Origin: Candidatus Nomurabacteria bacterium
GTDB taxonomy: Bacteria > Patescibacteriota > Minisyncoccia > Phycocordibacterales > UBA918
Direction of reading: 5' to 3'
Length of the DNA stretch: 64,000 nucleotides
NCBI GenBank assembly: GCA_020632135.1
Contig: JACKGC010000001.1
Coordinates: 308,241-372,240, forward strand
A program made the translations under genes and the position numbers. The notes beneath the pieces are model-generated. The model did not search any database. It was not told where the DNA came from and was given only the letters and a program-made list of their open reading frames with translations. This document shows, in pieces, positions 19,061 through 60,021 of this stretch. Position 1 is the first letter of the stretch; each line of letters opens with the position of its first letter.

Positions 19061-20065
19061 CTAGAATGGGTTTGAGCCGCCACGGACCTCAAAATGGAGG
19101 TGGGTTCCGGTAGACTTGCCCGTACTACCCATACCGCCAATCACTTCACCTTGTGAGACCCACGCTCCAACCCCAACGTCGTTGCGCATAAGATGAGCGT
19201 AGAGGGTTTGTGTACCATTAGCGTGACGTACCACAATGTACTGACCATACCCACCATTCCAGCCTGAGCTCTTTGAGACAATTACTTCACCAGAAGCTGC
19301 TGCCCGGATCGGCGATCCATATCCAGCGGCGAGGTCAACTGCGTTGTAGCCGTGGATTCCTTGCGTACGTACCGCGCCTGGCGCCGGGTGAGAGAAACCA
19401 GCCGTAGACGCTCCACCGCCTCCTGAGACTCGTACCGGCGAAGCCGCTGATGCTCGTACCGATACAGTATGCATTGCACCACCCGGAATGATGAGTGTAT
19501 CACCCACTGAAAGCTCTTCGGCAGAAGCTAATTGATTATAAGAAAGGATCTCTTCTACATCGCCTTCGTATTTCTTGGCGATCGAGCCGATGGTATCACC
19601 ACTTTTGACCACGTGTCGTACACCAGCAATCGGCAAAATAACTAGCGTATCTCCTGGTTGGATGGCAGTGGCGCGTGAAATATCGTTGGCCCACATGATG
19701 GTATTTGAGGTCACGCCGAACATTTCCGCGATCTGTGAGAGGGAATCGCCTTCACGCACTGTGTAGACCCGAATCTCACCCATACCAGTCTTTTGTTCTG
19801 CGATCTCATCTTCACCAACCGGGCCAGTAGACACCAGCGCATTCTCATCTACGATCACTTCAGCGCCACCGCGGGCACCCATCGGATTTGGGTTTTGAAG
19901 TGCGGTCAAAAGGGGAACATCGGTCGCTGACACGGCTCCCATCTGCACTTCTGGTGTTACCACCGCCTCTGCCTTAGTGAAAAATTTACTAAAAAAACCA
20001 GCGTGTACCGAAAGTGGCAACGAGATGATCACACTAAGGAGAATAAATTCACTTGCGACACGCAC
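19061..20065 (-). CDS. Secreted LysM-repeat M23 peptidase (peptidoglycan hydrolase)
   Basis: Signal peptide, two LysM repeats (GDSLSQIAEMFGV.., GDTIGSIAKKYEG..) and M23 motifs (GYGQYIVVRHANG..LYAHL, GSTGKSTGTHLHFE). GTG start. Confidence 0.85.
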   Translation of the reverse strand: MRVASEFILLSVIISLPLSVHAGFFSKFFTKAEAVVTPEVQMGAVSATDVPLLTALQNPNPMGARGGAEVIVDENALVSTGPVGEDEIAEQKTGMGEIRVYTVREGDSLSQIAEMFGVTSNTIMWANDISRATAIQPGDTLVILPIAGVRHVVKSGDTIGSIAKKYEGDVEEILSYNQLASAEELSVGDTLIIPGGAMHTVSVRASAASPVRVSGGGGASTAGFSHPAPGAVRTQGIHGYNAVDLAAGYGSPIRAAASGEVIVSKSSGWNGGYGQYIVVRHANGTQTLYAHLMRNDVGVGAWVSQGEVIGGMGSTGKSTGTHLHFEVRGGSNPF

Positions 20066-23312: not shown

Positions 23313-23388
23313 GGGAAGATATCACCATACACAACCTGTGTGCAAATAGATACCCGAAGACTCAGGTATGCTGTTATACTTACATTGT

Positions 23389-24282
23389 ATGCAGGGGCAG
23401 TTAAACCCGAAGATAGTTGGTGCTAGCATCATTGGTTTCGCATTAGTTAGTGGCGCGTTTGTTTTAAGTGACTTTGGGGTGAAGCCCGTGCCGGTCCAAC
23501 AAACCGCCCACATCCCCAACTCCGCTCTCCAGCGCACTCCTATTGCGGTGACCGACTCCGATGATAACGGTATTGAAGACTGGCGTGATGAATTTATCAC
23601 CACCGACCCGGTCATACTCAATAAAGCCCCTGTCGACTATACCCCTCCAGATACCCTCACTGGCCAAATGAGTATTGATTTCATGGAGAATATCATCCGA
23701 TCTAAGGGCTATGGTCCGTTTGGGCGAACAGAGGCCGAAGTGATCGACAATACCATCGAGCAGCTACAACTTAAGTCAGTTAATGACAAGATCTACGACA
23801 CGCCAGACATCACCATCATGGAAATATGGGACAACAACGACCTCGTCAATTACGCCAACACACTGGCTGCTACCATCTACCGTCACAACGTCCCTAATAT
23901 GGATGGGGAATTGGAGATCCTCTACGACGTGGTACAAAATGGCAAGAAGGAACGACTCGCAGAGTTGCGCACCATCGCCGAAGTGTATGAGAAGTATCGT
24001 GATGACACACTCCTTATCCCTGTACCAGACTTCTTGGTTAAGCAGCACCTCGACCTTATTAATACCTACAACGCTATGTATCATGACATCAGCAGCATGA
24101 CCCTTGCGTTAGAAGACCCGGCCGTCTCGCTCTTACGTCTCAAGCGGTACGAGGACGACGCGAGCGGTCTATCATTGGCCCTCACGAATATGTACTTCGC
24201 ACTTGAGCCGTACGCGAATTTAATAACCATTGATGACCCAGCCGCATTATTCGTTATTTTTAGCCCTGATTTTCAATTATAA
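23389..24282 (+). CDS. Membrane-anchored hypothetical protein (T4SS-like cluster gene 1)
   Basis: N-terminal TM (IVGASIIGFALVSGAFVL), then an acidic DSDDNGIEDWRDEF motif of Ca-binding type. No family recognised. It is the first gene of a tightly packed same-strand array. Confidence 0.5.
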   Translation: MQGQLNPKIVGASIIGFALVSGAFVLSDFGVKPVPVQQTAHIPNSALQRTPIAVTDSDDNGIEDWRDEFITTDPVILNKAPVDYTPPDTLTGQMSIDFMENIIRSKGYGPFGRTEAEVIDNTIEQLQLKSVNDKIYDTPDITIMEIWDNNDLVNYANTLAATIYRHNVPNMDGELEILYDVVQNGKKERLAELRTIAEVYEKYRDDTLLIPVPDFLVKQHLDLINTYNAMYHDISSMTLALEDPAVSLLRLKRYEDDASGLSLALTNMYFALEPYANLITIDDPAALFVIFSPDFQL

Positions 24283-24292
24283 CCCCTAGCTT

Positions 24293-25729
24293 ATGGATAC
24301 GTTCTTCACCCACCTCAAGAAAGGCATCGTCGCAACTACCTTCATGATCTTTGCGTTTGCGATGACTTACGTCCCGCAAGACTGGAACCAAGTGAAGGAA
24401 GCACACGCTGGCGGGGCAGGTGGTGGTGCGCTTGAAGTGACACAGCTGGGACAGTGGGCTTCAGATAAAGTGTTCCAAGCTGCCTCGATCGCCCAAGAGA
24501 CCATCACCGCCATTGCTACTAATAGTATTTGGATCAAAGAATATGTACTTGACGGCATCGCCTGGGCGATCGCAAAGGCTATCATTTCCAACCTGTTGTC
24601 ATCACTGATCGATTGGATCAATTCTGGTTTTCAAGGGAGCCCGGCGTTTATCCAAAATCTGGAACTCTTCCTGCGTGACCAAGCTGATATTGCAATTGGG
24701 CAGTACCTCGATGAACTCGGTGGCATTGGTTCCTTTCTCTGTGAGCCCTTCCGGCTTGATGTTCAGGTGGCAGTAGCACTTCAGTATGAGCGCACTCGCG
24801 TCGACCAACCAACCCGTGATTGTACTCTCACTGGCATCATCGATAATATTGACGGGTTTCTTTCTGGGACCGCTGATTCCTTTGATGAAGGTGGTTGGAA
24901 TGACTGGTTTGACGTCACTTCGGCTCCAGAAGTGTACACTCCTTATGGACAGATCTTGTCCGCGCAAACCGGGGCTGAGATTCGCATCTTAGGGGAAAAG
25001 GGTCGTGAAGCCGCCAAGCTGGAGTGGGGTGACGGGTTTCTTTCTGGTGAGATCTGCGAGCTCGTTGGTGGAGCAGACACTACCAAAGAGGAGTGTTTCA
25101 TCTCCAAGCCAGGCAAGATCATCGAAGAGGCACTCTCATTCAACCTTGATTCAGGTCGACAGTCACTGATCACAGCTGATGAAATTGATGAAGTTGTTTC
25201 TGCTCTTATTTCACAACTAGCCAATACGGTTATTACCGGTGCCGCCGGTCTTTTAGGCCTATCTGGTGGTACAGGGTATACGTACACTGGATTTAATGCT
25301 GGGTCATACCTGGACGCGGTCAACCAAGAAGCAATTGAAAGTCTCGGGGGGCAGACAGGAGGAAACAATTCTGGCACTTCATTACAAACCATGCAAACGT
25401 CACTTGCTACACAAACCTCTCTTCAAGATAGCGCTCTTCAATACCGATCCCAATTAGAAGCAAAGCAAGCATTGGGTACCCTATCAGCAGCGCAAACTAG
25501 TCAGGTCAACAGTGCTCTGACTGAAATAAATACGGTAGTTAACAATACTGACCAAGACATCAGCACGATCAGTAATCTCATCACTCAATACAATGCTGCA
25601 ACTGGCAATACCGCTCAGCAAGCAATCATTATTACTGAATTCGATAGTCTCACCCTCTATAGTCAAGGTCAGGTAAACAATTTAACTGCTGGTTGGAGCT
25701 CACTACTCTCATCACTACCGAATAGTTAA
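24293..25729 (+). CDS. Secreted or membrane-anchored hypothetical protein (cluster gene 2)
   Basis: N-terminal TM (IVATTFMIFAFAMTYV), 4 Cys and a Ser/Thr/Gln/Asn-rich C-terminus. It lies 10 nt after gene 1. Confidence 0.5.
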   Translation: MDTFFTHLKKGIVATTFMIFAFAMTYVPQDWNQVKEAHAGGAGGGALEVTQLGQWASDKVFQAASIAQETITAIATNSIWIKEYVLDGIAWAIAKAIISNLLSSLIDWINSGFQGSPAFIQNLELFLRDQADIAIGQYLDELGGIGSFLCEPFRLDVQVAVALQYERTRVDQPTRDCTLTGIIDNIDGFLSGTADSFDEGGWNDWFDVTSAPEVYTPYGQILSAQTGAEIRILGEKGREAAKLEWGDGFLSGEICELVGGADTTKEECFISKPGKIIEEALSFNLDSGRQSLITADEIDEVVSALISQLANTVITGAAGLLGLSGGTGYTYTGFNAGSYLDAVNQEAIESLGGQTGGNNSGTSLQTMQTSLATQTSLQDSALQYRSQLEAKQALGTLSAAQTSQVNSALTEINTVVNNTDQDISTISNLITQYNAATGNTAQQAIIITEFDSLTLYSQGQVNNLTAGWSSLLSSLPNS

Positions 25730-25741
25730 TAAACCATTGTA

Positions 25742-27994
25742 ATGTCACAGCTGAAAAGAAAATTTCCACTACTCCTGACCATACTGCTTTTTGCTGTGCC
25801 ACTACTAACCCTAGCTGAGGGACCCGGCACGTTCGATAACATCCTCTGGAATATCGTCAACTCGGTATTTGGTACTTTAGCTGGTCTCGCCGGCCTACTC
25901 TTGAATTCCGGTATCAATACGTACGTTATCGGATTTGGTGACCAAGTCTTCAATAATGGTATTGATCTGGTGATCAACAACCTCTGGACGGCGGTTCGAG
26001 ACATCTTCAACCTCACCTTCATCTTTGGTTTGGTCTATATCGGTATCAAGATGATCCTGGATAGCGATAACTCCAATACCCGCCGCTGGCTCGTCAGCCT
26101 CATTCTGGCCGCACTCCTAGTAAACTTCAGTCTCTTCATCACTAAGGTAGTAGTTGATTTCACTAACATCCTTGCCAGCCAAATCGCCATTAATGGCTTT
26201 AATACCGCGGCTGATGGAGAAGTACTCGTCTCAGAAACTTTCATGAGGTCACTTGGCATTACCAAGACCTGGGGCGGCATGAGCGGCTTTAGTTCGACCC
26301 AAGATGGAGGTGTATATGCGTACATTTTTGGCTCAATGATCCTCTTCATTATCATGGCCTTTGTGTTCGCCGCTGGTGGTATCTTACTTATCATTAGATA
26401 TGTGGTCTTGATCTTTTACATGATCCTCTCACCTCTCATGTTTCTGGGGTGGGTGTTCCCACAGATGCAAGGCTTTAGCTCGCGCTACTGGCGCAATTTC
26501 CTCAGTCGCGCTTTCGTTGCTCCAGTCTATCTTCTGTTGCTGTACTGCTCTGCTTTTGTGGTCAGTAGTATGTACAACGGCAGGTCGCCGGATTACGCAG
26601 CTGCCCTCAATGCTGATGGTGGTTCAGGTGTACTTAGTAGTTTCGAGAACACCATTCCTACGTTTATTATTGCGAGTGTATTCTTGATCGCATCTATTGT
26701 GATCGCCCAAAAAATGGGTGCTGAAGGCGCTTCCACAGCAGTCAACATCGGTCGAAATCTTACCAACAAAGCGCGTCAGGGTGCCATAAAATACACCGGC
26801 AGGGCAGTGGGTGGTGCCACTGCTGGCGCTGCTGCTGCTGGCATGCGCAGGACTGTGGGTCGCCGAGCATACAACCTTACTCAAGATGCTGGCTTCAAGG
26901 AGCGAGCCGGGAATAGTCTACTTGGTAAAATGGCCTTTAAGGCTGCCCAGAAGACTGCCAGCTCAAGCTTTGATGTACGCCAGGCGGGCGGGCTTGGCAA
27001 GGCCACTGGGCTTGGTACTGGTGCCGCCGGTGGCTATGCAAAAACTGTGAGCACCAAAGCTAAGGAGGCTGACCAGTTTGCTAAAGACATTCACGTTGAT
27101 CAAGATAAAAATAGTCCTGAGTACATCGCGAAGGTGAATGAAAAAGAAAAGGAGTTAAAACAAAATGTTAGGACAGAACAACTTGTCCTAGCTGCTCAAA
27201 AACAAGCTCTCGAAGAAACAACCAATAAAACTTCAACTCAAATTGCTGAGAATATTACTGAGGCCACTAAAGAACTCGCAGAAGCCCAAAAAGCTCTCAA
27301 GGAAGCACAGGCCAACAAACAAAACTTCACTAAAGATGAAATGGCTGGTTTTGAAGCCGATGTTAAGGTGAAAGCTGGTACTGTAACTGGTCTGAAATAC
27401 TCTCAGGATGTTCTGAAGCGAAAAGAAGCAGTTCATAACTCTAAGGCAACAGAGGCTCAAAAGAAGGATCAGCTAGCTGCAATTAATAATGAATTTGTTG
27501 CTACAGGGCAATCATTTGATAATCAAATTGATCAACTTGGAAAGAAGATTGAAGGCAACAAAGCTCGCGCCAGTGCAGCAGCCCAAGTTGAGTACGCCAA
27601 TGAGTTGGCATACATGGATCAACTTAAGAGCACGGAAGATTTCTGGAATCGTGTAGGATCGATCGCCACTGGCGGCTTTATAGGCAACCAGTATGCAACC
27701 GGGGCTGTTGGCCTAGTAGGTGGAGCTGGCACCGCTTATGCGGTAGGGGCAGGTGGAGCTGGCTTGATGATGGGAGCTGGTGCGGTGGAAGCTCAGGCTG
27801 ACCTAGCCCGTCGCCAGCGTGAATCCTTAGAGCGAACATATGGCGCAGATGGTTCGAAAATGGCAAACACGAAGCAGCAACAAGCATACTTTAAGGCTCA
27901 GGCTGAGGCACGACAAGCAGTGCTTAATGAGGGTGCAACACCGAGCCCTGCTGCGCCCGCACCAACCCTAGAATCTAATACTCCAGAATCATGA
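25742..27994 (+). CDS. VirB6/TrbL-like polytopic membrane protein with a long coiled-coil and Gly-rich C-terminal extension
   Basis: Signal peptide plus at least 6 TM segments in the first ~330 aa. About 400 aa of K/E/A/Q-rich coiled coil and G/A-rich sequence follow. The family is assigned from topology and synteny with VirB4. Confidence 0.5.
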   Translation: MSQLKRKFPLLLTILLFAVPLLTLAEGPGTFDNILWNIVNSVFGTLAGLAGLLLNSGINTYVIGFGDQVFNNGIDLVINNLWTAVRDIFNLTFIFGLVYIGIKMILDSDNSNTRRWLVSLILAALLVNFSLFITKVVVDFTNILASQIAINGFNTAADGEVLVSETFMRSLGITKTWGGMSGFSSTQDGGVYAYIFGSMILFIIMAFVFAAGGILLIIRYVVLIFYMILSPLMFLGWVFPQMQGFSSRYWRNFLSRAFVAPVYLLLLYCSAFVVSSMYNGRSPDYAAALNADGGSGVLSSFENTIPTFIIASVFLIASIVIAQKMGAEGASTAVNIGRNLTNKARQGAIKYTGRAVGGATAGAAAAGMRRTVGRRAYNLTQDAGFKERAGNSLLGKMAFKAAQKTASSSFDVRQAGGLGKATGLGTGAAGGYAKTVSTKAKEADQFAKDIHVDQDKNSPEYIAKVNEKEKELKQNVRTEQLVLAAQKQALEETTNKTSTQIAENITEATKELAEAQKALKEAQANKQNFTKDEMAGFEADVKVKAGTVTGLKYSQDVLKRKEAVHNSKATEAQKKDQLAAINNEFVATGQSFDNQIDQLGKKIEGNKARASAAAQVEYANELAYMDQLKSTEDFWNRVGSIATGGFIGNQYATGAVGLVGGAGTAYAVGAGGAGLMMGAGAVEAQADLARRQRESLERTYGADGSKMANTKQQQAYFKAQAEARQAVLNEGATPSPAAPAPTLESNTPES

Positions 27995-28554
27995 TCGAGC
28001 AACAAGACATTAACAACATCATTTCGATCTTTGAGCCTTCCTACGCGGCGTTTGTTACCAGTGACTTCGCTACTCAGACCGCCAAGATCTTAGGTCGGAA
28101 ACACCAATTTTCACCCGAGCAAACCGAAGCACTACAAGACGGTATCACCCTATACTTACTCGCTGTGTATAGTAAAGAGAACCTAACGGCTCACCTTTCT
28201 CAAGCCTGCCAGATGTCGCTTGAGGACGCTACTATGCTCATCGATGCCGTACTTTCGGTGCTGCCACCAAACTTCGAGGATCTCCAGTCACAGACCTACG
28301 AATTTTTACAAACACCACCACAACCAACCCCAGCACCGGCACCAGTTGAGAATCCATCAGTCCCAAAGACCTTAGCAGCCGATATCGCCGAAACCGAGGC
28401 GGCCCTGAAGGCGGTGCCACACATGCGCACCATGGCTAAAGACATCGCCGCTGCGCAAGGCATTGAGCTGGTCCACACAAGTGCCTCACAAGAAGACATC
28501 TTGAAAGGCACTAAGGGAGTCGATGACGGTCCTCGGTGGGGTAGTGTGGAATAA
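27991..28554 (+). CDS. Hypothetical soluble protein (cluster gene 4)
   Basis: ATGA start/stop overlap with gene 3. It has a Pro-rich linker and the motif HMRTMAKDIAAA. Confidence 0.5.
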   Translation: MIEQQDINNIISIFEPSYAAFVTSDFATQTAKILGRKHQFSPEQTEALQDGITLYLLAVYSKENLTAHLSQACQMSLEDATMLIDAVLSVLPPNFEDLQSQTYEFLQTPPQPTPAPAPVENPSVPKTLAADIAETEAALKAVPHMRTMAKDIAAAQGIELVHTSASQEDILKGTKGVDDGPRWGSVE

Positions 28555-28619
28555 TTGCCTGGGGATAGTTGGATAGCTGACCAACATTTTACCAACACCA
28601 CCATGTATAATGGTGGTGT

Positions 28620-29051
28620 ATGCGTTTTGAGGTACCACAGTTCATTGAAGTAGAGGATAAGATCTTTGGGCCATTAACCTGGCGCCAATTTCTCTACCTC
28701 GGCGGTGGTATCGGTATGTCGGTGGTCATGTTCATTACCCTCGGTTTCTTTGCCTTTCTTCTTATTGGGCTTCCAATTGCACTCCTCTCGGGAGCATTAG
28801 CCTTCTATCCGGTGAATGGTCGTTCATTCGATCATTTTCTTGAGTCAGTGATCAACTATACATTTAAACAACGACTCTACCTTTGGAAGCAAAAAGCAGA
28901 CATTGTACATAAAAACGAGACTCCCGAAGAGACCCGTCCAACCCGTCCCTACGTAACACCACCAACCCCGAGCAGGGAACAAGCACCCCAAAACGGCGTT
29001 ACCTCTATGGCGCGCCGCCTGGAATTACAAGCTCTTCAAAAGACCGAATAA
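28620..29051 (+). CDS. PrgI-family (VirB3-like) T4SS membrane protein
   Basis: The N-terminal VPQFIEVEDKIFGPLTWRQFLYLGGG followed by two TM helices is the PrgI-family pattern. It sits directly upstream of the VirB4-like genes. Confidence 0.65.
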   Translation: MRFEVPQFIEVEDKIFGPLTWRQFLYLGGGIGMSVVMFITLGFFAFLLIGLPIALLSGALAFYPVNGRSFDHFLESVINYTFKQRLYLWKQKADIVHKNETPEETRPTRPYVTPPTPSREQAPQNGVTSMARRLELQALQKTE

Positions 29052-29052
29052 C

Positions 29053-29688
29053 ATGGCAAACACCCAAGCAGCAACGCAGGACTTTGTTACGATCCGCGAC
29101 ATCAAAGACAATGTTGTCATTCAAAAGAATGGGCAAATGTGCATGGTACTACTCGCCTCATCGATCAACTTTGCATTGAAATCACTTGATGAGCAAAAAG
29201 CGGTCCTTTTGCAGTTCCAACAATTCCTTAATACACTCGATTTCACTCTGCAGGTGTACGTGCAGTCACGCCGACTCAATATTGAGCCGTATCTTTCACT
29301 CCTCGCTGGCATGGAAGTAAACCAAGACAACGACCTGATGCGCACTCAGTTGCGGGAGTACATCGAATTCATCCGCACTTTCACTGAAGATGTTGACGTG
29401 ATGAGTAAGAGTTTTTTTGTGGTCATTCCGTACACCCCCGCCAAGATCAACCTCACTAAAGGCCTCACCAACCTCTTCACTCCTGGACAAGGCCAGTCTA
29501 ACCTTCCGACTGAGACTGCTTTTGAAGAACACCGGATCCAGCTTGAGCAACGTGTTGGGATGGTTTCGGAAGGCTTGGCCCGGGTGGGTGTACGTACCAT
29601 CACCTTGCAGAAGGATGATTTGGTGGAACTCTTTTACCATTTATACAATCCAGGTGACCCAACCGGTGCAGCGCCACTGCAGCAATAG
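29053..29688 (+). CDS. Hypothetical protein resembling a stand-alone VirB4-type N-terminal domain (cluster gene 6)
   Basis: It has no Walker motifs. The pattern IRDIKDNVVIQKNGQMCMVLLASSINFALKSLDEQ...FQQFLNTL...LQVYVQSRRLNIEPY parallels the N-terminal region of VirB4/PrgJ-type ATPases. It starts 1 nt after the prgI-like stop. Confidence 0.4.
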   Translation: MANTQAATQDFVTIRDIKDNVVIQKNGQMCMVLLASSINFALKSLDEQKAVLLQFQQFLNTLDFTLQVYVQSRRLNIEPYLSLLAGMEVNQDNDLMRTQLREYIEFIRTFTEDVDVMSKSFFVVIPYTPAKINLTKGLTNLFTPGQGQSNLPTETAFEEHRIQLEQRVGMVSEGLARVGVRTITLQKDDLVELFYHLYNPGDPTGAAPLQQ

Positions 29689-29706
29689 GTATAATGTAAT
29701 TTCACT

Positions 29707-31506
29707 ATGGGACTCTTCGACTCACTAAAACCACAACCAACCAATACTGCTGCTGGCCCAAAGCCAAGCGACCAACTACTGACCCTCACCGACGTGATCG
29801 CGCCGTCAGCTGTTAATATCAACCCTCGCAGCATCAATGTGAGCGGTGTCAATGCCAGAGTGTACTACGCTGTCTCGTATCCTCGCTTCCTTAATGACGG
29901 CTGGATCGAACCAGTGCTCAACCTTCCCAAGGAACTCGATGTCTCGATCTTCGTTCACCCGATCGACACAGCTGAAACCCTCAAGAAGTTCCAAAAGAAA
30001 GTAGCTGAGGTACAAAGTCAGATCAACCTAAAGGCTGAGAAAGGGGAAGTGCGTGACCCACAACTTGAGGCAGCCTACCGCAACCTCGAAGAGCTGCGCG
30101 ATAAACTCCAGCAAGCTGAAGAGAAGCTCTTTAACGTTGGATTTTATCTTGCCGTCTACGGTGAAAATGAAAACGATATCACCAAGATCGAAAATGAGAT
30201 CCGGGGCATCCTTGACGCCCGGCTGATCGCCATGAAACCGGCTCTCTTTCAACAAGAGCAAGGTCTGCGGAGTGTACTTCCACTCGCGACCGACGAGCTA
30301 CTCGTCCATAGTAAATTCAACTCAGAGCCACTTTCAAGCTTTTTTCCATTTACCTCATTCGACCTCACTTCAGACACAGGTATCCTCTACGGCATCAACC
30401 GCCACAACTCTTCGCTGGTGCTCTTTGACCGCTACAGTCTCACCAACTACAACTCAGTGACTTTCGCCACCTCTGGGGCAGGTAAGTCATATACTTTAAA
30501 GCTTGAGATTCTTCGTTCGTTGATGTTTGGCACCGAAGTGATCGTCCTCGACCCGGAGCGAGAGTATGAATTCTTAGCTGACGCAACCGGCGGCCGCTTT
30601 TTCAATATTTCACTCTCGTCCAACCACCACGTTAACCCCTTCGACCTGCCGCCACCCGCTGAAGACGAAGACCCGCGTGACGTGCTCCGCACGCACGTGA
30701 TCGAGCTAGTTGGCCTCTTCCGCCTTATGCTTGGTGGTCTCACCGCTGAAGAGGAAACTCTCATCGACCTCGCCATCCAAGAGACCTATGCTCTTAAAGA
30801 CATCACAGGTGACGTAGACTTCGCAGAAATGGAGCCTCCACTCTTGGCCGACTTCGAGATGGTGCTCGCTGGTATGGACGGCAGTGCCTCACTCATTACC
30901 CGCTTGCAGAAGTATACTTCTGGTACCTGGTCTGGCTTCATGAATCAACCAACCAACGTTGATATCAACCAAAAATTCGTGGTGTTCTCTCTTCGTGACA
31001 TGGAAGATGAGCTGAAGACCATTGCGATGTACATCATCACTAACTTCATTTGGGGCTCAATTCGTCGCCGACTCGCTAAGCGCCTGATGGTAATTGACGA
31101 GGCGTGGTGGATGATGAAATCTGAAGACACCGCCTCATTCCTTTTTAGTCTCGCCAAACGTGGTCGTAAGTACTATCTCGGTATTGGTACTATTACCCAG
31201 GACGTGGATGACTTCCTGCGTTCACCATACGGTGTCCCAATGATCACCAACTCTTCCATTCAGCTTCTCATGAAACAATCGCCAACCGCGATCGATAACA
31301 TCCAAAAAACCTTTAACCTTACCGATGAAGAAAAGTTCCTTCTACTGGAATCTAATGTAGGGGAGGGGATCTTCTTCGCTGGCCTCAAACATGTCGCTAT
31401 TAAGATCATCGCTTCCTACACCGAAGACCAGATCATCACCTCAGACCCTTCTCAACTCCTCCAAATAAAACAAGCTCGCCAAGAGCTCCAGGCCTCACGC
31501 GTATAG
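29707..31506 (+). CDS. VirB4/TraC-type type IV secretion ATPase
   Basis: Walker A TSGAGKSYTLK, Walker B RLMVIDEAWWMM, GIGTITQDVDDF, and an N-terminal VirB4-type domain (YYAVSYPRFLNDGWIEPVL). Confidence 0.8.
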   Translation: MGLFDSLKPQPTNTAAGPKPSDQLLTLTDVIAPSAVNINPRSINVSGVNARVYYAVSYPRFLNDGWIEPVLNLPKELDVSIFVHPIDTAETLKKFQKKVAEVQSQINLKAEKGEVRDPQLEAAYRNLEELRDKLQQAEEKLFNVGFYLAVYGENENDITKIENEIRGILDARLIAMKPALFQQEQGLRSVLPLATDELLVHSKFNSEPLSSFFPFTSFDLTSDTGILYGINRHNSSLVLFDRYSLTNYNSVTFATSGAGKSYTLKLEILRSLMFGTEVIVLDPEREYEFLADATGGRFFNISLSSNHHVNPFDLPPPAEDEDPRDVLRTHVIELVGLFRLMLGGLTAEEETLIDLAIQETYALKDITGDVDFAEMEPPLLADFEMVLAGMDGSASLITRLQKYTSGTWSGFMNQPTNVDINQKFVVFSLRDMEDELKTIAMYIITNFIWGSIRRRLAKRLMVIDEAWWMMKSEDTASFLFSLAKRGRKYYLGIGTITQDVDDFLRSPYGVPMITNSSIQLLMKQSPTAIDNIQKTFNLTDEEKFLLLESNVGEGIFFAGLKHVAIKIIASYTEDQIITSDPSQLLQIKQARQELQASRV

Positions 31507-31520
31507 TATACTTTTAGTAT

Positions 31521-32429
31521 ATGGCGGTGACAGCAACCGAAGGACAAACCCCCGAGCGCGGCGCACACCGCGCTCGCTCACGTGTTACTACTGACCAAAC
31601 CAGGCGTATCACCAGCTCTGACCGGTCTGGTTTTGGGAAGCGAAGCGTGACGCGTAATGTGCGCACCTCGTTAATGCCAGGCAATCCAAACAACACGCGT
31701 GATAGTTACCACAAGACCACCAGTGAGGAATTTAATGAAACGTATGCGCAGCAAGGCCTCCAGCCGAGCAACGTAGCAGCAAATACCCCTACTGCACCTG
31801 CCCCACCTGACCAAACTACTCGCCAGGCGTCCGTTGCATATAGTTCCACCCCGGTCGCAGCAGGTGGGGGAAGTATCAAGATCAAACGTCCTGAACGTGC
31901 GTCAGTCGCCTCCAAAACGGCAGCTCGAGCACGCGCTACCGCAGTTAACATTTGGATCTGGGCCTCGGCTGGGTTTATATGGTCAGTGTTTCAGCTACCG
32001 TTTACGATCGCCAGCTTAGTGTTTTTGGGACTCGCGTCATTTATTGACCTCCTCACAGGTATGGCGGAAGGCTCTGCAGAGGATGGGTTTTTTATAGAGA
32101 TCTTAAAAGACATGGTTGGTATTGGACTTGATATAGCGGGAGCTGTGGTTGACGCAATGTACACACTGTTTGAGATCGACCTTAGTATCCTTAATCCGTC
32201 CAATATTTTTGCTGCCTTGTGGGTGTTTTTGATTGGATACGCGTTTATACTTTTGTTGTTGATCTACCTCGGGTACCTCTTTGCGGGTCTCAAACCGCTG
32301 TCAGGAAAAGCGGCGGGTCTTAAAAAGGGAATGCTCATTCTCGCGATCATTGGCTACAGTATCCCGCTTCTCAACCTCTTCCCCTGGTTTATTCCGTGGA
32401 CTATCGCTGTGTGGCGCTACCCAAAGTAG
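31521..32429 (+). CDS. Hypothetical membrane protein with a basic, disordered N-terminus and 4-5 C-terminal TMs (cluster gene 8)
   Basis: The C-terminal half is strongly hydrophobic (VNIWIWASAGFIWSVFQLPFTIASLVFLGLASF.., ALWVFLIGYAFILLLLIYLGYLF..). The start codon is uncertain. Confidence 0.45.
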   Translation: MAVTATEGQTPERGAHRARSRVTTDQTRRITSSDRSGFGKRSVTRNVRTSLMPGNPNNTRDSYHKTTSEEFNETYAQQGLQPSNVAANTPTAPAPPDQTTRQASVAYSSTPVAAGGGSIKIKRPERASVASKTAARARATAVNIWIWASAGFIWSVFQLPFTIASLVFLGLASFIDLLTGMAEGSAEDGFFIEILKDMVGIGLDIAGAVVDAMYTLFEIDLSILNPSNIFAALWVFLIGYAFILLLLIYLGYLFAGLKPLSGKAAGLKKGMLILAIIGYSIPLLNLFPWFIPWTIAVWRYPK

Positions 32430-32565
32430 GGGAAAGTGACACTCACTCCTTATTCACACGTAATCTACAGTTTTTCAACACTGTTTCGTGAATGTTGTGC
32501 ACGAATTTCACACATTGGTGGGGTTTTCTCCGATGTCTTGGTCTTGGTCTGGTATTATTAGCAGT

Positions 32566-33537
32566 ATGAGGATTTTAACTATTGCACTGGTTTTATGTTT
32601 TGGATTTTCAGCCCATTTTGCCACGGCTCAATTCGACCAATTCACCAGCTCATTCACCAACACTGAAGTGGGTATTCACTTAATGCCACCACTGCCACAA
32701 CCAGGCCAGAGTGTGACTGCCACTTTGAGTGACTACCGTAGTGGTAGTGTTGGCTCGTCAATCGAATGGTCACTCAATGGCGAGGTGCTTGAAACTTCCC
32801 AGAACCAACGCGAGATCACCTTCACCGCTGGAGCAGATGGTCAAAGCCAACTCCTTGAGGTATTAGCAACAAACAACACTGGTGCTACTGAGTTATTTCA
32901 GAAAGTGATCACCCCACACTATCTCGACATCATCATCGAGCCACAAACCCGTGTCCCTGACTTCTACCACGGCCGTTCACTCCCCAGTATTGGGAGTCTT
33001 GTAAATGCTACAGCTTTGGTAAGTGGTGAGTACCTCAACGCGCCAGACCTAGTATATACCTGGCGGGTGGGGCAGGAGGTGATTGAGGGCGGTCCGGTGA
33101 GTGGTCGCAACAAAGTAACTTTCACCACTCCACGCGGAAAGAATTTTACCCTTTCACTCCAGGTAGCCAAACGAGACGGGACCATTATCGCCAATCGTTC
33201 GCTTGCAGTGCCCTCAGTAGCACCAGAGCTGGTCTTTTATGAGGTTAACACCCTTCATGGTATGAGTAAGGTTGCCATCAATAACTCATTGGCGCTTATC
33301 GGTAACAGCGTCGCGGTACGGGCTGAGCCATACTATCTAGATTCCCGTATCTACAACAACCCAATGGTAGCGCAGTGGAAGGTAGCTGGTGTAACCACCG
33401 AAACAGCCAACAACCCATACGAAGCTACTATTGAACGTACTGGCGCTAGTGGTAGCCGCACCTCACTCCAGTTCCATGTCCGCGATACCAAACAAGTATT
33501 ACAAGGTGCACAAGGCACGATCCAGGTAAGTTTCTAA
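32566..33537 (+). CDS. Secreted protein with about three tandem beta-sandwich-like repeats (cluster gene 9)
   Basis: Signal peptide MRILTIALVLCFGFSAHFATAQ, then three segments of ~100 aa with a recurring pattern (Y.W.V/L.G...; ..F....G....L.L.V). Start at the internal ATG 32566. Confidence 0.5.
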   Translation: MRILTIALVLCFGFSAHFATAQFDQFTSSFTNTEVGIHLMPPLPQPGQSVTATLSDYRSGSVGSSIEWSLNGEVLETSQNQREITFTAGADGQSQLLEVLATNNTGATELFQKVITPHYLDIIIEPQTRVPDFYHGRSLPSIGSLVNATALVSGEYLNAPDLVYTWRVGQEVIEGGPVSGRNKVTFTTPRGKNFTLSLQVAKRDGTIIANRSLAVPSVAPELVFYEVNTLHGMSKVAINNSLALIGNSVAVRAEPYYLDSRIYNNPMVAQWKVAGVTTETANNPYEATIERTGASGSRTSLQFHVRDTKQVLQGAQGTIQVSF

Positions 33538-33544
33538 GTATTGT

Positions 33545-34741
33545 ATGAACCGCACACTCTTCATAATCATTGGCGCCGTCCTTATTGTGGTCTTAGTTGC
33601 GGTGTGGGTCTACGTGTTGTTTTTCAGCAACAGCCCGACTAGCAACACTCCTGAATTTGCCGATCTTGATATGGGTGTAAATACTGATACTGTTGTCATT
33701 CCTGAGCCCACCATCACCACCGAGCCAACAGTGGATGTTACTGGTCCTGAGCAAATCCGCCAACTCACCACCAAGAAGGTAGTGGGATATCAAGAGGTGC
33801 GTTTCTCAACCACTTCAGCTCCGCTCGCATACTACGTGGAGTCAGGCACCGGCCACCTCTACTCGATCGACCTAAGGAGTGGGGCGGAGAAGAAGATCTC
33901 AGGCACCACCATCCCCAATACCCGCCATGCTGCTATCACTCCAAATGGTGCCTACGTAATGCTACAGTCTGGTAGCGGGCGTAGCGCTGAGTTCATTGTG
34001 GGGCAGATAAGCACCACTAGCCCGAGCCTGACCACCGGCACTATCGCAGAGGACATATCAGACTTTACCGCCGCCGCCGACAACACCTTCCTCTACGCAG
34101 TGCAAACCAATAGCGGCACTATCGCCAAGCGCTACTACCCGATCAGTGACACCAGTGAGACCCTCTTTACTGTGCCGTTCCGAGAAGCCATCATTGACTG
34201 GGGCCTCGCAGCAACCGATACACACTACGTATACCCGAAAGCAAACAGCCAACTTGAAGGATATCTCTACGCAGTTGAGAATGGGGAACTGCGCCGTTTG
34301 CCAGCGAGTGGATATGGATTGACTGCGAAAGGTACTGATACTGGTGTACTCTTTACCACCCTAACGAGCACCAACTACCAGAGTTATATTCATAACGTAC
34401 CCTCAAGCACAGTAAGTACTGCTGCTTTGTTTATACTCCCTGAGAAGTGTGTTAGCTCAGTACAATTAACAGACCTCCTTATCTGCGGCGGTAATCTACT
34501 AAGTGACACTTCGCGCCAAAGTCTTGATCAGTGGTATAAGGGTGTAACCACATACGAGGATGGCCTTTGGGAGATAGACACCATCACCGGAACTGCTTCA
34601 TACCTCATGGACATCACTAGTGCCACTGGCCGCAATGTTGATATACACTCTCTTCTGACCGGCTACGAAGACCGCTATCTCTACTTTATTAACAAAGCCG
34701 ATAGTTCACTTTGGTTGTTTGACCGTAACCCTACTAATTAA
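33545..34741 (+). CDS. Membrane-anchored protein, possibly TolB-type beta-propeller-like (cluster gene 10)
   Basis: N-terminal TM (LFIIIGAVLIVVLVAVWVYVLFF). It has PD40-like segments (GHLYSIDLRSGAEKKIS...ITPNGAYVMLQSGSG). Confidence 0.45.
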   Translation: MNRTLFIIIGAVLIVVLVAVWVYVLFFSNSPTSNTPEFADLDMGVNTDTVVIPEPTITTEPTVDVTGPEQIRQLTTKKVVGYQEVRFSTTSAPLAYYVESGTGHLYSIDLRSGAEKKISGTTIPNTRHAAITPNGAYVMLQSGSGRSAEFIVGQISTTSPSLTTGTIAEDISDFTAAADNTFLYAVQTNSGTIAKRYYPISDTSETLFTVPFREAIIDWGLAATDTHYVYPKANSQLEGYLYAVENGELRRLPASGYGLTAKGTDTGVLFTTLTSTNYQSYIHNVPSSTVSTAALFILPEKCVSSVQLTDLLICGGNLLSDTSRQSLDQWYKGVTTYEDGLWEIDTITGTASYLMDITSATGRNVDIHSLLTGYEDRYLYFINKADSSLWLFDRNPTN

Positions 34742-34747
34742 TCCAGT

Positions 34748-35527
34748 ATGAAAACACTTAAACTCCTCATCCCACACACCATCATCCTGGCGCTGCTCCT
34801 CCTGCCATTCTTAGCCGCTGCCCAAAATACCTATAAGCCACTAGTGGGTATTCCTGGGGTAAGTGGCGACCCTTCCACCCAAGGCTTCGATAGCTACATC
34901 AACGCCCTCTACGCGCTCTCAATCAGCATCGCGGCACTTCTTGCGGTCATCAAGATCGTGATCGCTGGTGTGAAGTGGATGATGACCGATATTGTTACCT
35001 CAAAAGGGGAAGCAAAAAAGGACATCCAAGCGTCACTAATTGGTTTGGTGATCGTGATAGCAGCCGTCCTTATCCTCACCGTCATCAACCCAAATCTGGT
35101 AAACGTGAATTTAAATATGCAGAAGATCGGTGTGACTGAGCAAGGAGGAGGAGGTGGAGGCTCTGGTTCAACACCAGTGTTAGATATGAATTATGTGGAG
35201 CAAGGTCAAACAACTGGCAATCTTGATACCGCAACCCTTTCCTCATCTGCCCCAACTGGTCAAGTGGAGGCTTTCTTTAAATGGTGCCACCAGCAAGGAA
35301 GAACACCTAAAAATATTGGAGGGGAGTGGCGCTGTATAGATTATGACAACCTGGAGAAAACAGTTATTTCTCAAGCTTATTGTTTAGATTCGTTGGGTGC
35401 ACAGTGTGATGTGGTTCGAAACACCCTTAAAACTAATTGCGAGGGTACCAAGAATGGTGTGTTCTTTGATGGGGAAATCGATAGTAATGGTTATAGAACA
35501 TATACTTGTATTCAGGATAGGTTTTAA
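34748..35527 (+). CDS. T4SS pilin-like (VirB2/TrbC-type) protein fused to a C-terminal Cys-rich domain
   Basis: Signal peptide ending AAAQ, then two hydrophobic helices separated by KGEAKKD (ALYALSISIAALLAVIKIVIAGVKWMM...IQASLIGLVIVIAAVLILTVI). A GGGGGGSGS linker and a ~105-aa domain with 6 Cys follow. Confidence 0.6.
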   Translation: MKTLKLLIPHTIILALLLLPFLAAAQNTYKPLVGIPGVSGDPSTQGFDSYINALYALSISIAALLAVIKIVIAGVKWMMTDIVTSKGEAKKDIQASLIGLVIVIAAVLILTVINPNLVNVNLNMQKIGVTEQGGGGGGSGSTPVLDMNYVEQGQTTGNLDTATLSSSAPTGQVEAFFKWCHQQGRTPKNIGGEWRCIDYDNLEKTVISQAYCLDSLGAQCDVVRNTLKTNCEGTKNGVFFDGEIDSNGYRTYTCIQDRF

Positions 35528-35530
35528 TTT

Positions 35531-35561
35531 AAAAAAACACCACACTCTGTGTGGTGTTTTT
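35531..35561. terminator. Bidirectional terminator hairpin
   Basis: aaaaaa acaccacac tct gtgtggtgt tttt, between the pilin gene (+) and yidC (-). Confidence 0.75.
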
Positions 35562-35577
35562 AAATTAGTCACTAATA

Positions 35578-47044: not shown

Positions 47045-48817
47045 TTACACCACGTGTTTTAGAAAATCATCATCACTCACTATATCTGAACCGGGTACAT
47101 TTTGTTGTACAGGTAAAGTGGGGTTGGTGGCAAGGTGGTAGGGGAGTTCAATTACTCGCTCGAGCTCTTTCATTGATGTCATACCATGGAGAACTTTTTC
47201 AATCCCGTCTTCTAGCATGGTCGGAATACCCTGTGGTCTGGCTGCTTCAAGAATAACATGCTCACGCGGGTCGCGGATCACCACCTCTTCGACTGCTTCA
47301 TCCATAATGATTCCTTCAAAGATACCCACTCGTCCTTTAAAGCCGGTGCCACCACATACAGGGCAACCAACCGGGCGATAGAGGGTGATGCTTGGTGGTA
47401 CAGGTACTGGGTGTGGGTGTTTTGACATGATGTACTGAATGAGTTGCGCATCTTCAGATGTGGCCGCTTCAGGTGCTTTACAATCCTCACATAACACACG
47501 CACCAGGCGTTGACCCATGATGATATTGATAGCGGTACCCATTACTCGCGGGTCGATCCCGAGGTCAATGAGGCGCGGGAAGCCACCAACCGCGCTATTG
47601 GTGTGGAGAGTGGAGAACACTAGGTGACCTGTTTGGGCAGCATGGATAGCGGTCTCAGCAACTTCTCGATCACGGATCTCACCGATCATGATCACATCAG
47701 GGTCCTGGCGAAGAATGGCACGCAGGCCCGAAGCAAAGGTGTAGTCATCTCCAGTCTGAGTTTGGACGATCCCCTCGAGTTTGTATTCTACCGGATTCTC
47801 GATAGTGATGATCTTAACTCCTTCATGATGCACTTGCTGTAGGTACGCATAGAGAGCGGTGGTTTTACCAGAACCTGTTGGGCCAGTAGTGATCACTAGC
47901 CCGTTTGGTTTTTTAAGTTCCCGCAAGAGCGCAGCTTCAATATGCTTATTCAACTTAATACGATCGAGTGAGAAACTCGCAACCGTTGGGTCCAAAAGAC
48001 GCATTACGATCGACTCACCGAGCGCACCTGGGATGACTGAAGATCGCACCTCTACCTCGCGCTCACCAGTGTTGAAGGTGAAGCGACCATCTTGCGCCTC
48101 AGCGCGGGAATTGAGAACCATACCCGAAAGTAGTTTCAAACGAGAGATCATCCGGTTGAAAATATATGACTCAAGGTCAGCGACATCGTGGAGTACACCA
48201 TCAAAACGGTACCGGAGGCGGATACCGCTATCTTCTGGTTCGATGTGGATGTCTGATGCGCCTAAGGCGAGCCCGCCAGCAAAGATCAATTCAAGGGTTT
48301 CTGAGATACGACGTGACTTATTGGCGGTGCGAATATCCATCAGGATGCGTGGCACATCTTCCACCTGCTTGATCTCAGTGGTGAGGCGCTGGATGTCGGC
48401 AGCGCTGATCTCAAATACCCCCTTCTTCTCAGCGGTGGAGGAGGTTACATCAGCGTAGCGTTTCCAGGCATACTCAAGGCTGGCTTGAGAACACATGTAT
48501 ACGAGCAGGGTATAGCGGCGACCTTCGAGGGTTTGCAACAACGCTTGCGTCTTTGGGTTACTTGGATTCTTTGCTGCCACAGAAAGAGTATTGCGATGGA
48601 GCTCAAAACCAACTATCTCTGCTTCTTTGGCTTTTTCTTCTGGGATCGCCGCGATCGCTTCAGGGTTGATGGTGTACCCTTGTAAATTTATGTACTCAAA
48701 ACCTAATTTTGGAGCAGTCATTTGAATGACCTGCTCTTCTTCACGAGCGCGCAGATCAGCAATGCGAGTGTCTGAGCGACTGTCATCGAACGTAACCATA
48801 TATGCAAATGATAGCAT
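47045..48817 (-). CDS. GspE/PilB-family type II secretion / type IV pilus assembly ATPase
   Basis: Walker A GPTGSGKTT, GEIRD, HLVFSTLHTN and a tetracysteine motif (CEDC...CPVCGGTGFKGR). The start may be 48799. Confidence 0.85.
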   Translation of the reverse strand: MLSFAYMVTFDDSRSDTRIADLRAREEEQVIQMTAPKLGFEYINLQGYTINPEAIAAIPEEKAKEAEIVGFELHRNTLSVAAKNPSNPKTQALLQTLEGRRYTLLVYMCSQASLEYAWKRYADVTSSTAEKKGVFEISAADIQRLTTEIKQVEDVPRILMDIRTANKSRRISETLELIFAGGLALGASDIHIEPEDSGIRLRYRFDGVLHDVADLESYIFNRMISRLKLLSGMVLNSRAEAQDGRFTFNTGEREVEVRSSVIPGALGESIVMRLLDPTVASFSLDRIKLNKHIEAALLRELKKPNGLVITTGPTGSGKTTALYAYLQQVHHEGVKIITIENPVEYKLEGIVQTQTGDDYTFASGLRAILRQDPDVIMIGEIRDREVAETAIHAAQTGHLVFSTLHTNSAVGGFPRLIDLGIDPRVMGTAINIIMGQRLVRVLCEDCKAPEAATSEDAQLIQYIMSKHPHPVPVPPSITLYRPVGCPVCGGTGFKGRVGIFEGIIMDEAVEEVVIRDPREHVILEAARPQGIPTMLEDGIEKVLHGMTSMKELERVIELPYHLATNPTLPVQQNVPGSDIVSDDDFLKHVV

Positions 48818-58422: not shown

Positions 58423-60021
58423 ATGAAAATTTACACAAGTACTACCTTGAAGCAGTGGGTGGCTGTGGTCGTCGGGGTGGCAGTCGCCGTTTTGGTGCTA
58501 GGTGGATTTTCTGGTGCGTTGGGGCAGGGGTCGGAAGTTACCGAGCAATCGGTGGACAGATCTAAAAGAGTGTCACTTTCTACAAGTAGTATTCCAGTAC
58601 GAGTATCGGGAGTGGTAGAGGCAGCGCAAAGTACCATTGTGTATGCGCAAACAGCTGGAGTGGTGACCGACTTGTTGGTTCGTGAAGGAGGTGAGGTGGC
58701 AGCTGGTACGGTCTTGGTGCGCCAAGCTCTGCCAGTAGCAGAAGCGCGGCTGGTGTTTTCGGCCGCCGAGCGGGAACTTAGTGGGCTCGAACAGTCATTA
58801 CAAACTGAGTTGCGAAGTGGGGGAGCTTTGCAAGCTGAGCACCGATCCCGATCGGCGGCCGACATCGCGAGTTTGCGCGCAGTGAGTACTGACACGCGTG
58901 TCACAGAAGCGGTTACTGCCCTTACAACGACAGCGGCAGAGAGTACGCTCTCGATCATTGGGTCGATCAACTACATCAATAATCACCGCTATCTTTTTTC
59001 AGCTACCGGTCTGGAATTGTACGAAGCTGTAGTGGCTGACTTGTATGGCTCAGTGCCAGATTATTTTCAAAGTGGGGTGGTTAATGGGAATGCTGGTGTG
59101 GTGGATCTGCAGTCAGTATTGCAAGCAGTGCAAACCACGGAAGATCCAGTTGCGTTAGAAACGTTCACGTTTTTACTCGAAGGTCAGCTGGCTGCACTTA
59201 CCGCTTTGTACGAGACCGCTGAGTCAGACGTGTTTGATCGACAAGCTTCGTACGTTGACTCGGCACTACAGTCTGAGTACCTCACCATGCGTGAGTCGGT
59301 GTTACTGACCGCAGCAGCACTCCAAACTAGTCGCACTGCATATCAGCAGGAGCTTGATGGTGTATTGGAGGATGAGGTATTGCAAAACACCACTGTAACG
59401 GTGAGTGCGATTGATGCGGAACTGGCATCTCTACAGGCGCAGTATGCTGCGCGGCTCGCTGCGCAGTCAGATCGAGTGGCTGCAGCTGGGGTGGCTGTGG
59501 TAGCGGCCGAGCTATCGCTCGGCCGCCTAACCGCCCCCTTCTCAGGCGTGGTCTCAAAGGTCTTCGTTGATGAAGGTGAGTATGTGGTGCCTGGCACACC
59601 ACTCCTGTCGCTTGTTGGTGCAGGCGCGCGTGAGTTTGAAGCGACAGTGCCGGCTTACTTGCTGCCACATGTGGCAGTTGGTCAGGCGTTTGTGGTCGAT
59701 AGTGTGGTAATGGGGTATGTCGATCGGTTTAGTACTATTTCTACGGGTGGTAGTGGGACAGTAATCATAGCGTTGTCAGGTGATGGACTGCCGCTAGTTG
59801 GCAGCAGTCTCACTGGTTCACTGCTTGTATCGGCCCAAGACGGAGTGTATCGAGTCCCGCGTTCGCACGTGCACTATGATGCTGATGGGTTGTATGTGCA
59901 GTATGTTGATGGTACGAGCGCGCGGGCACAAGTGCTCTACGACGCAGGTCAGGAGTTGTTTATCACGGTCACTAAGATGAATACTGCTTCTCTCGTGCCA
60001 GCGGTAAGTATCGCGCTGTAG
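58423..60021 (+). CDS. Efflux RND periplasmic adaptor (HlyD/MFP family)
   Basis: N-terminal TM, a long alpha-helical hairpin region, and the lipoyl/beta-barrel motif LTAPFSGVVSKVFVDEGEYVVPGTPLLSL. Confidence 0.75.
   Translation: MKIYTSTTLKQWVAVVVGVAVAVLVLGGFSGALGQGSEVTEQSVDRSKRVSLSTSSIPVRVSGVVEAAQSTIVYAQTAGVVTDLLVREGGEVAAGTVLVRQALPVAEARLVFSAAERELSGLEQSLQTELRSGGALQAEHRSRSAADIASLRAVSTDTRVTEAVTALTTTAAESTLSIIGSINYINNHRYLFSATGLELYEAVVADLYGSVPDYFQSGVVNGNAGVVDLQSVLQAVQTTEDPVALETFTFLLEGQLAALTALYETAESDVFDRQASYVDSALQSEYLTMRESVLLTAAALQTSRTAYQQELDGVLEDEVLQNTTVTVSAIDAELASLQAQYAARLAAQSDRVAAAGVAVVAAELSLGRLTAPFSGVVSKVFVDEGEYVVPGTPLLSLVGAGAREFEATVPAYLLPHVAVGQAFVVDSVVMGYVDRFSTISTGGSGTVIIALSGDGLPLVGSSLTGSLLVSAQDGVYRVPRSHVHYDADGLYVQYVDGTSARAQVLYDAGQELFITVTKMNTASLVPAVSIAL

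Follow-up and report, generated by a model that had tools for sequence, protein, structure and literature searches.

The chromosomal type IV secretion systems (T4SSs) of Paceibacteria are related to mating-pair-formation type FATA (MPF-FATA), lie near the replication origin and mostly lack a relaxase (PMC12102498). A survey of Patescibacteria, the Candidate Phyla Radiation (CPR), listed the pilins of these systems by their coverage of the family PF18895 and referred to their small protein size (Quinonero-Coronel et al. 2025, PMC12102498), and an array of pilin genes was essential in Ca. Southlakia epibionticum ML1 (Wang et al. 2023, PMC10633639). We analysed a 64-kb stretch of a Candidatus Nomurabacteria contig (JACKGC010000001.1), the whole of which is called the window, and within it a pilin gene at 34748..35527 on the + strand. 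Like the surveyed pilins, this one matches PF18895, has virB4-, prgI- and trsD-like neighbours, and is encoded at a chromosomal location close to dnaA, dnaN, rnpA and ksgA. It differs in how diversity is generated: in the published cases short, divergent pilins diversify through tandem arrays of 2-11 genes, which occur chiefly in Saccharimonadia and Microgenomatia, whereas here there is a single gene, and the diversity lies in a fused, Cys-rich C-terminal tail. We read the product, with a probability of roughly 0.55, as a modular VirB2-like pilin of a chromosomal, origin-proximal, Paceibacteria-type CPR T4SS (Ca. Kaiserbacteria) that carries exchangeable outer binding modules. VirB2-like pilins beside virB4 and dnaA were already known in Patescibacteria; the literature searched gave no description of fused Cys-rich tails, of tail swapping or of enzyme-tailed T4SS pilins.

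The gene is one unbroken open reading frame (ORF) running from ATG to TAA and encoding 259 amino acids (aa), about 234 of them in the mature pilin, whose mass would be about 24.6 kDa. The protein consists, in order, of a Sec-type signal peptide, a two-helix hairpin, a Gly/Ser linker and a 119-aa C-terminal domain with six Cys residues. A preliminary description, made by reading the sequence, had reported a signal peptide ending in AAAQ, two hydrophobic helices around a KGEAKKD loop and a GGGGGGSGS linker, and all of these are present in the translation. The signal peptide, MKTLKLLIPHTIILALLLLPFLAAA (aa 1-25; 34748..34822, +), begins MKTLKLL and ends LPFLAAA|QN; its n-region has two Lys, its core is hydrophobic and positions -3 to -1 are A-A-A, after which signal peptidase I is predicted to cut. 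The AlphaFold2 model of the full-length protein, built on a 32-sequence alignment, has a helix at residues 7-24 of the signal peptide. The mature N-terminus (aa 26-46; 34823..34885, +) carries the motif Y-x-P-L-V-G-I-P-G-V, whose Y29, L32, V33, G34, P36 and G37 are each either invariant in the alignment of 32 homologues or conserved there to 90% or more. Lying right after the predicted cleavage site, this motif could be a processing or assembly signal. The pilin head proper (34886..35086, +) was delimited by PF18895 and AlphaFold as a helical hairpin comprising helix 1 (aa 47-79), a short turn with KGEAKKD, and helix 2 (aa 84-113). The linker that includes GGGGGGSGS (aa 114-140; 35087..35167, +) has low predicted local distance difference test (pLDDT) scores, below 50 for residues 124-138, and is predicted to be disordered; in homologues it is rich in G, S, P and T and varies in length.

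The remainder of the protein, aa 141-259 (35168..35524, +), is a six-Cys alpha/beta domain, which we call a class A tail on the basis of a domain-only AlphaFold model and an alignment. Its Cys residues are at positions 180, 196, 212, 220, 231 and 254, and residues 1-140 contain none. Cys makes up 5.0% of the tail compared with 0.45% in the 42 other genes of the window (P=2e-5). The earlier figure of about 105 aa for this domain was right as to the six Cys and too small as to size, since AlphaFold puts its start at about residue 141-150, for a length of about 110-119 aa. The accompanying claim that the protein runs on beyond a canonical pilin was borne out; some 146 residues follow helix 2, including the folded 119-aa domain. 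The same description had asked if two genes might have been joined by a frameshift or an assembly error. The ORF is continuous, the identical protein is on record from five contigs of several sources, as a hypothetical protein of a Candidatus Kaiserbacteria metagenome-assembled genome, and the head-linker-tail layout is common to hundreds of independent homologues, with hundreds of assemblies alike. Because the identical protein recurs on five contigs and its homologues share the layout, the fusion is no assembly artefact; artefactual joining found no support and has a negligible probability.

The head reached the gathering score of PF18895 (T4SS_pilin), with 27.4 bits against a cutoff of 26.6 (E=3.7e-6), aa 48-113 covering profile positions 6-71 of 71. 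All 32 of the closest class-A relatives also matched PF18895 (E<=0.01; best 1.1e-8). In NCBIfam the head drew only a sub-threshold match, to a 'pilin-like' model from a mycoplasma integrative and conjugative element. The type IV pilin and N-methylation families did not match the protein, whose N-terminus is of the Sec-type AAA|Q form and whose head is a helical hairpin. Among the Saccharibacteria relatives, in which pilin genes are essential, VirB2 identity was asserted from structure-based annotation (PMC10633639, PMC12857230). Family model, topology and genomic setting together thus back the pilin-like label given here; homology to VirB2 itself is putative. The preliminary description's reading of the N-terminal part as pilin-like agrees with the PF18895 score, with the AlphaFold hairpin and with a T4SS operon encoding PrgI/VirB3 and VirB4. 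The head is also well conserved: across 37 species its median identity was 66%, versus 67.5% for yidC and 71.5% for dnaN.

The tail, by comparison with the head, had no Pfam family. The domain-only AlphaFold model was confident (mean pLDDT 89.9), with residues ~141-259 folded in the order β-β-α-ββ-β-α-ββ, so that the structure prediction proposed earlier for this domain gave a clear alpha/beta fold. When the full-length and domain-only models were compared with PDB structures by Foldseek, and the domain-only model with BFVD, the best matches had E values of 0.2-0.8 overall, about 0.4-0.8 for the domain alone, and template-modelling (TM) scores of at most 0.35, apart from generic helical hairpins. 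Neither the tail profile nor the full-length profile found a meaningful match among PDB sequences. A homologue search with the tail alone, also proposed earlier, returned two word-sharing candidates for the single query and no match, and a profile of 30 class-A tails found nothing at E<=1e-3 in a 5.8-billion-protein index. In 38 aligned class-A tails, with a mean identity of about 21%, the six Cys were the only invariant positions, in the framework C-x16-25-C-x15-17-C-x5-11-C-x4-18-C-x19-23-C.

A hidden Markov model (HMM) of the class-A domain recognised 94 of 194 tails. Among these 94, C1-C2 occurred alone in 25, C3 and C4 were jointly absent in at least 7, and C3-C6 occurred alone in 4. This paired loss of Cys across homologues supports 1-2, 3-4, 5-6 connectivity, and it gives a putative answer to the disulfide pattern that the preliminary description had left for later: in the window protein the bonds would be C180-C196, C212-C220 and C231-C254. 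Cys is the sole exception to a lack of conserved polar residues in the tail, a pattern more in line with binding or a scaffold function than with catalysis. The tail also resembles two 'helix-Cys-x3-GG-beta-hairpin-Cys' units, aa 170-197 and aa 218-257. Cross-matches between half-domain HMMs were weak (9/42 and 6/42 at E<0.01), and an internal duplication of the tail is a weakly supported suggestion. A C-x(2-4)-GG motif was present in 88 of 195 tails, and the unit may recur as a shared building block in many kinds of tail.

Tailed pilins are not a peculiarity of this contig. A profile search of 1.84 billion cluster representatives found 18,507 relatives at E<=1e-3, each a representative cluster at 50% identity, and 935 at E<=1e-30; the best 150 were 157-445 aa long. 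Statistics on Cys and on tail length were taken from 195 relative sequences. In these the tail following the head was 8-318 aa long (median 133 aa), and the tails sorted into several Cys frameworks. The number of Cys in the tail, ranging from 0 to 20, was even in 191 of the 195 (P ~1e-51 for random parity), and the head was without Cys in 169. Even Cys counts support a placement of the C-terminus outside the cell, and the tail is probably extracytoplasmic and disulfide-bonded. Whether other CPR T4SS pilins carry similar extensions had been asked in the preliminary description; they do, family-wide. Beyond what was claimed there, the fusion is the norm in a very large CPR family, and the tail behaves like an exchangeable cassette.

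The evidence for exchange comes from sequence divergence and from base composition. BLAST recovered the window protein's tail at none of the 37 related loci. Pairs of proteins whose heads are 99-100% identical, such as P0032/P0081 and P0083/P0101, have tails only 19-24% identical with different Cys frameworks, and near-identical heads joined to unrelated tails argue for replacement, not drift alone. In the window gene the G+C content at third codon positions (GC3) was 0.34 for the tail, 0.60 for the head and 0.52±0.05 for the neighbouring genes, which places the tail at the 1st percentile. Further, tail GC3 was below that of the neighbours at 25 of 31 loci (p=8e-6), and head GC3 was not (p=0.78). 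Tail GC3 was about 0.2-0.4 regardless of the genome's own GC3. The low tail GC3 fits exchange from a shared, AT-richer pool.

To look for a second pilin, the head-profile HMM was run at E<=1 over the whole window (64 kb) and over the ±10 kb around the pilin at 37 related loci. None was found in the window or at 36 of the 37 loci; the exception, L036, has two tandem pilins. The check proposed earlier for a second short pilin gene thus found none in the 64 kb of this genome covered here. At two loci the orthologue in the same slot is tail-less: a 122-aa protein 74% identical to the window head (L004:6053-6427) and a 119-aa protein (L034:9989-10357), neither with space for a tail before yidC. Since these orthologues occupy the same slot, the head works alone, and tailed and tail-less proteins are positional orthologues. 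The preliminary description had left open decoration of the filament along its length versus a minor tip subunit; with a sole pilin per locus and tail-less orthologues at the same position, the data lean to a tail on every subunit.

Variant architectures extend the range of what the head can carry. The tandem tailed pilins (L036:9031-9921 and L036:9977-10906) occupy the position that the window gene has in its own locus and have Cys-free tails, one matching Peptidase_M15_3 (60 bits) and the other resembling an SLT-type lytic transglycosylase (18.6 bits, sub-threshold). These tails are predicted peptidoglycan hydrolases, the second by its sub-threshold match. In P0192 (243 aa) the order is inverted: a signal peptide is followed by two four-Cys modules, a linker and the PLVGIPG head, at which the protein ends. 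To judge from this sequence, the mature pilin can also bear a variable module at its N-terminus, and cargo on either terminus, as in L036 and P0192, is expected if both termini face outward. A supposed N-terminal extension at L033 was rejected; a second weak match had misled, and the protein has the normal head-first order.

The pilin gene is the last of a same-strand operon (23368..35527), and its start lies 6 nt beyond the stop of the upstream gene. The operon opens with four genes without a Pfam or NCBIfam match, encoding proteins of 304, 478, 750 and 187 aa (23368..28554, +), whose order is conserved in related loci. The 750-aa protein (25742-27994) is polytopic in its N-terminal part, and its C-terminal half is long, rich in Ala, Gln and Lys and coiled-coil-like; no family matched it, and we take it, by inference only, for a possible VirB6-type channel subunit bearing an extension. 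Next come a PrgI/VirB3-like T4SS membrane protein (28620..29051, +; PF12666 PrgI, E=5e-12), syntenic in 31 related loci, and a TrsD-like protein that weakly resembles the N-terminal part of VirB4 (29053..29688, +). The latter matched TrsD (E=7.7e-4) and N-terminal regions of VirB4 in NCBIfam, below threshold in each case, and its median identity across loci was 70%. The VirB4-like T4SS ATPase (29707..31506, +) matched the PF19044 TraG P-loop family (E=1.7e-25) and AAA_10, with 85% median identity across loci. Just upstream of the pilin are three conserved genes without a family match, for proteins of 302, 349 and 398 aa (31521..34741, +), each with an N-terminal signal or anchor or with C-terminal membrane segments and in the same order at nearly all 37 loci. 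In all, eight operon neighbours had no Pfam or NCBIfam family.

Downstream of the pilin, on the opposite strand, are yidC, rnpA and rpmH, followed by dnaA and dnaN, the last two within 4 kb; ksgA is upstream of the T4SS operon. The order g478-g750-PrgI-g211-VirB4-g302-g349-g398-pilin | yidC-rnpA | dnaA-dnaN was essentially invariant in 37 reference genomes. The gap between pilin and yidC is only ~50-100 bp. A terminator and then the convergent yidC follow the 3' end of the pilin gene at 35 of the 37 loci, the other two having a contig edge within the pilin gene. In the window the convergent gap holds a bidirectional terminator-like hairpin (35524..35568), identified by RNA folding, with a free energy of -19 kcal/mol (z=-5.49); none of 200 shuffles folded equally well. 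A consensus terminator scan missed this hairpin, because A/T pairs lengthen its stem. An Rfam scan of the window found only a tRNA-Lys, and no relaxase or coupling-protein (T4CP) family was represented among the ~45 window ORFs of at least 120 aa that were scanned. As in other chromosomal T4SSs of Patescibacteria, VirB4 and PrgI were significant, the TrsD-like match was weak, and the operon is dnaA-proximal; the setting matches the published Paceibacteria arrangement (PMC12102498) and is itself already known. A LysM + Peptidase_M23 cell-wall hydrolase is encoded at 19061-20065 (-), about 3 kb upstream of the T4SS operon beyond uvrD and ksgA. Domains of this kind have been noted among VirB1 candidates (PMC12102498), and the hydrolase could serve a VirB1-like role.

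From these observations we infer how such a pilin would work. The pre-protein would be exported by Sec/YidC and its signal peptide cut after Ala25. The hydrophobic helices would then form a membrane hairpin with the charged turn cytoplasmic and both termini outside, and the C-terminal domain would fold outside the membrane, locked by three consecutive disulfides. VirB4 would drive extraction of the heads from the membrane and their stacking into a pilus or a short conduit. In the pED208/F pilus both TraA termini lie on the exterior, with the α2-α3 loop between the helices turned to the lumen (PMC5018250). Given outer-surface termini in VirB2/TraA filaments, each subunit would display its tail, here on a flexible linker of ~25-35 residues, and the result would be a coated filament or a cell-surface patch. 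The head would be held constant for assembly while the tail, swapped or diversified fast in the manner of a cassette, would change what is bound, most likely structures on the surface of host or prey cells. The tail might instead shield the conserved shaft from pilus-specific phages or host defences; the data do not separate these functions. In its fullest form the scheme says that the sole T4SS pilin polymerises, that one exchangeable, disulfide-rich receptor-binding module of unseen fold per subunit coats the whole surface, and that the tail, swapped horizontally among lineages, is the main determinant of which host cells are recognised. Such a protein would be the first 'modular conjugative-type pilin'. 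We offer that form tentatively, as possible and short of an even chance.

Several results weigh against the modular pilin, some bearing on the head, others on assembly or on the tail. The window protein was below threshold for PF04956 (TrbC/VirB2), at 18.5 bits against a cutoff of 27.9, and only 4 of the 32 relatives matched that family at E<=0.01. When the head profile was aligned with a VirB2 alignment from Agrobacterium, Sinorhizobium and Acetobacter (hhalign), the similarity was weak, with 11.8% probability over 16 columns; the VirB2 alignment was small and taken from annotated Ti/Sym plasmids, and the stretch aligned is the equivalent end of helix 1. Neither sequence nor fold searches of the PDB recovered any solved pilin. 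No pilus of any Patescibacteria T4SS is reported in the literature searched, so polymerisation is assumed. Packing was estimated from F-pilus geometry (87 Å diameter, five subunits per 12.1 Å rise), and if the geometry is F-like, a globule of 105-119 residues would fill ~0.79-0.85 of the shell at minimal radius. Full decoration of an F-like filament would thus be tight but feasible, because a linker of 25-35 residues permits staggering. The sole-pilin result in this genome covers the 64-kb window, and a pilin elsewhere in the genome is possible. The 64-kb window showed no thiol oxidase of the DsbA or VKOR type. Relaxed codon selection in a fast-evolving segment could also account for the tail's low GC3, and no ligand or binding site can be named for the tail.

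Part of this evidence would suit a head that is a mere membrane anchor or a T4SS channel subunit and never leaves the cytoplasmic membrane, as has been proposed for the pilins of pilus-less T4SSs, with the tail tethered at the cell surface beside the secretion machine and no filament made. The systems closest to that of Patescibacteria, the monoderm T4SSs of MPF-FATA type, usually have no pili (PMC12102498, PMC10633639), and an anchor would be in keeping with the lack of an observed Patescibacteria pilus, with the weak similarity to proven pilus subunits and with the dense packing that full decoration demands. A mere anchor, on the other hand, would not need a head conserved to about the degree of yidC (66% median identity), YxPLVGIPGV included; the existence of tail-less orthologues in this slot shows the head to be functional by itself; and the pilin genes of a Saccharibacterium are essential (PMC10633639). 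We consider a bare anchor unlikely, while giving it some weight. The tip of a filament has been proposed as the site of the PilB-like modular type IV pilins of S. sanguinis, whose bulky modules would clash in the shaft (PMC8179133), and by the same logic the window protein could be a minor tip adhesin of a filament built from a short major pilin whose own gene lies elsewhere in the genome, given that VirB2 arrays of 2-11 genes occur in other Patescibacteria classes (PMC12102498). Such arrays are concentrated in Microgenomatia and Saccharimonadia (PMC12102498), and the search at E<=1, over the present 64 kb and over ±10 kb around the gene in 37 related genomes, turned up a second pilin only in one of those 37. 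The tailed and tail-less proteins, with heads 74% identical, are moreover positional orthologues, and a tip pilin seems to us decidedly improbable.

The tail might also be a pro-domain or cargo that is cut from the head and then either set free or passed into a target cell, in the manner of a polymorphic effector or toxin with the head as its trafficking module. A constant N-terminal module combined with wholesale C-terminal swaps is a hallmark of polymorphic toxins, and the peptidoglycan-hydrolase tails at L036 are typical of antibacterial effectors or VirB1-like enzymes. C-terminal processing of a propilin has a precedent in RP4 TrbC. The linker, by contrast, has no conserved cleavage motif, and the tail of the window protein has neither a match to a toxin or enzyme family nor a conserved catalytic-type residue. 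In P0192 the module is N-terminal to the head, which is at odds with a C-terminal release signal. There is also no slot for an immunity gene downstream of the pilin, where the convergent yidC lies ~50-100 bp away, and a toxin/immunity pair was rejected on that ground. Release of the tail is accordingly improbable, if a little less so than a location at the tip.

Other features of the window are recorded here for completeness. A PilB/GspE-type type II/IV secretion ATPase (PF00437, E=9e-108) is encoded at 47045-48817 (-), with no recognised pilus genes flanking it among the ORFs scanned. At 58423-63221 an HlyD-like membrane-fusion protein is followed by a full-length AcrB-type resistance-nodulation-division (RND) transporter (PF00873, E=4e-133); only one membrane is expected for this organism. 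A tandem pair of genes for Peptidase_M14 zinc carboxypeptidases occupies 5736-7660, and beyond them lies a gene for an XerC/phage-integrase-type recombinase (9155-10069, -). In the stretch at ~10.7-12.0 kb there was neither an Rfam match nor an ORF that reached 120 aa.

Among the questions that surround the CPR/Patescibacteria is how they locate specific hosts and adhere to them; their origin-proximal T4SS is essential in the one species tested. If the modular pilin reading is true, a fast-exchanged, surface-exposed domain on a constant module would be a concrete candidate for a determinant of host specificity. VirB2-type pilins could then carry folded domains, enzymes included, apparently as the normal state in a family of 18,507 clusters. 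The tail domains also amount to a large store of small folds, disulfide-stabilised and lacking structural neighbours.

Conjugative pilins are generally short, some are cyclised or trimmed, and they polymerise into extracellular pili that usually contain bound phospholipid. The VirB2 precursors retrieved for comparison were ~120 aa long, and mature pED208 TraA has 64 residues (PMC5018250). The window protein is like TraA (F/pED208), VirB2 (T-pilus) and TrbC (RP4) in having a signal peptide, two helices, a short polar or charged turn and VirB3/VirB4 genes alongside, and unlike them in being ~234 aa long when mature, with a 119-aa globular domain. The archaeal Ced and Ted pilins CedA1 and TedC (Beltran et al. 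2023, PMC9905601) are likewise VirB2-like components of domesticated, chromosomal, relaxase-free T4SSs in cells with no outer membrane; they differ in being short and without an appended globular domain, and no sequence similarity was detected. Polymorphic toxins and phage receptor-binding proteins have the same constant N-terminal module, swapped C-terminus and atypical base composition, but the window pilin has no adjacent immunity gene or recognisable toxin domain, and the likeness is an analogy only. The closest conceptual precedent is the modular type IV pilins, such as PilB and PilC of Streptococcus sanguinis (Raynaud et al. 2021, PMC8179133), which follow the same logic of carrier, linker and effector, the variable effector being an adhesin, lectin or peptidase for display on a filament (PMC8179133). 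These belong to an unrelated filament superfamily, use a class III signal peptide and a prepilin peptidase, and are minor subunits, whereas the window protein has a Sec-type AAA|Q signal, a VirB2-type hairpin and T4SS machinery, and is apparently the sole pilin of its locus.

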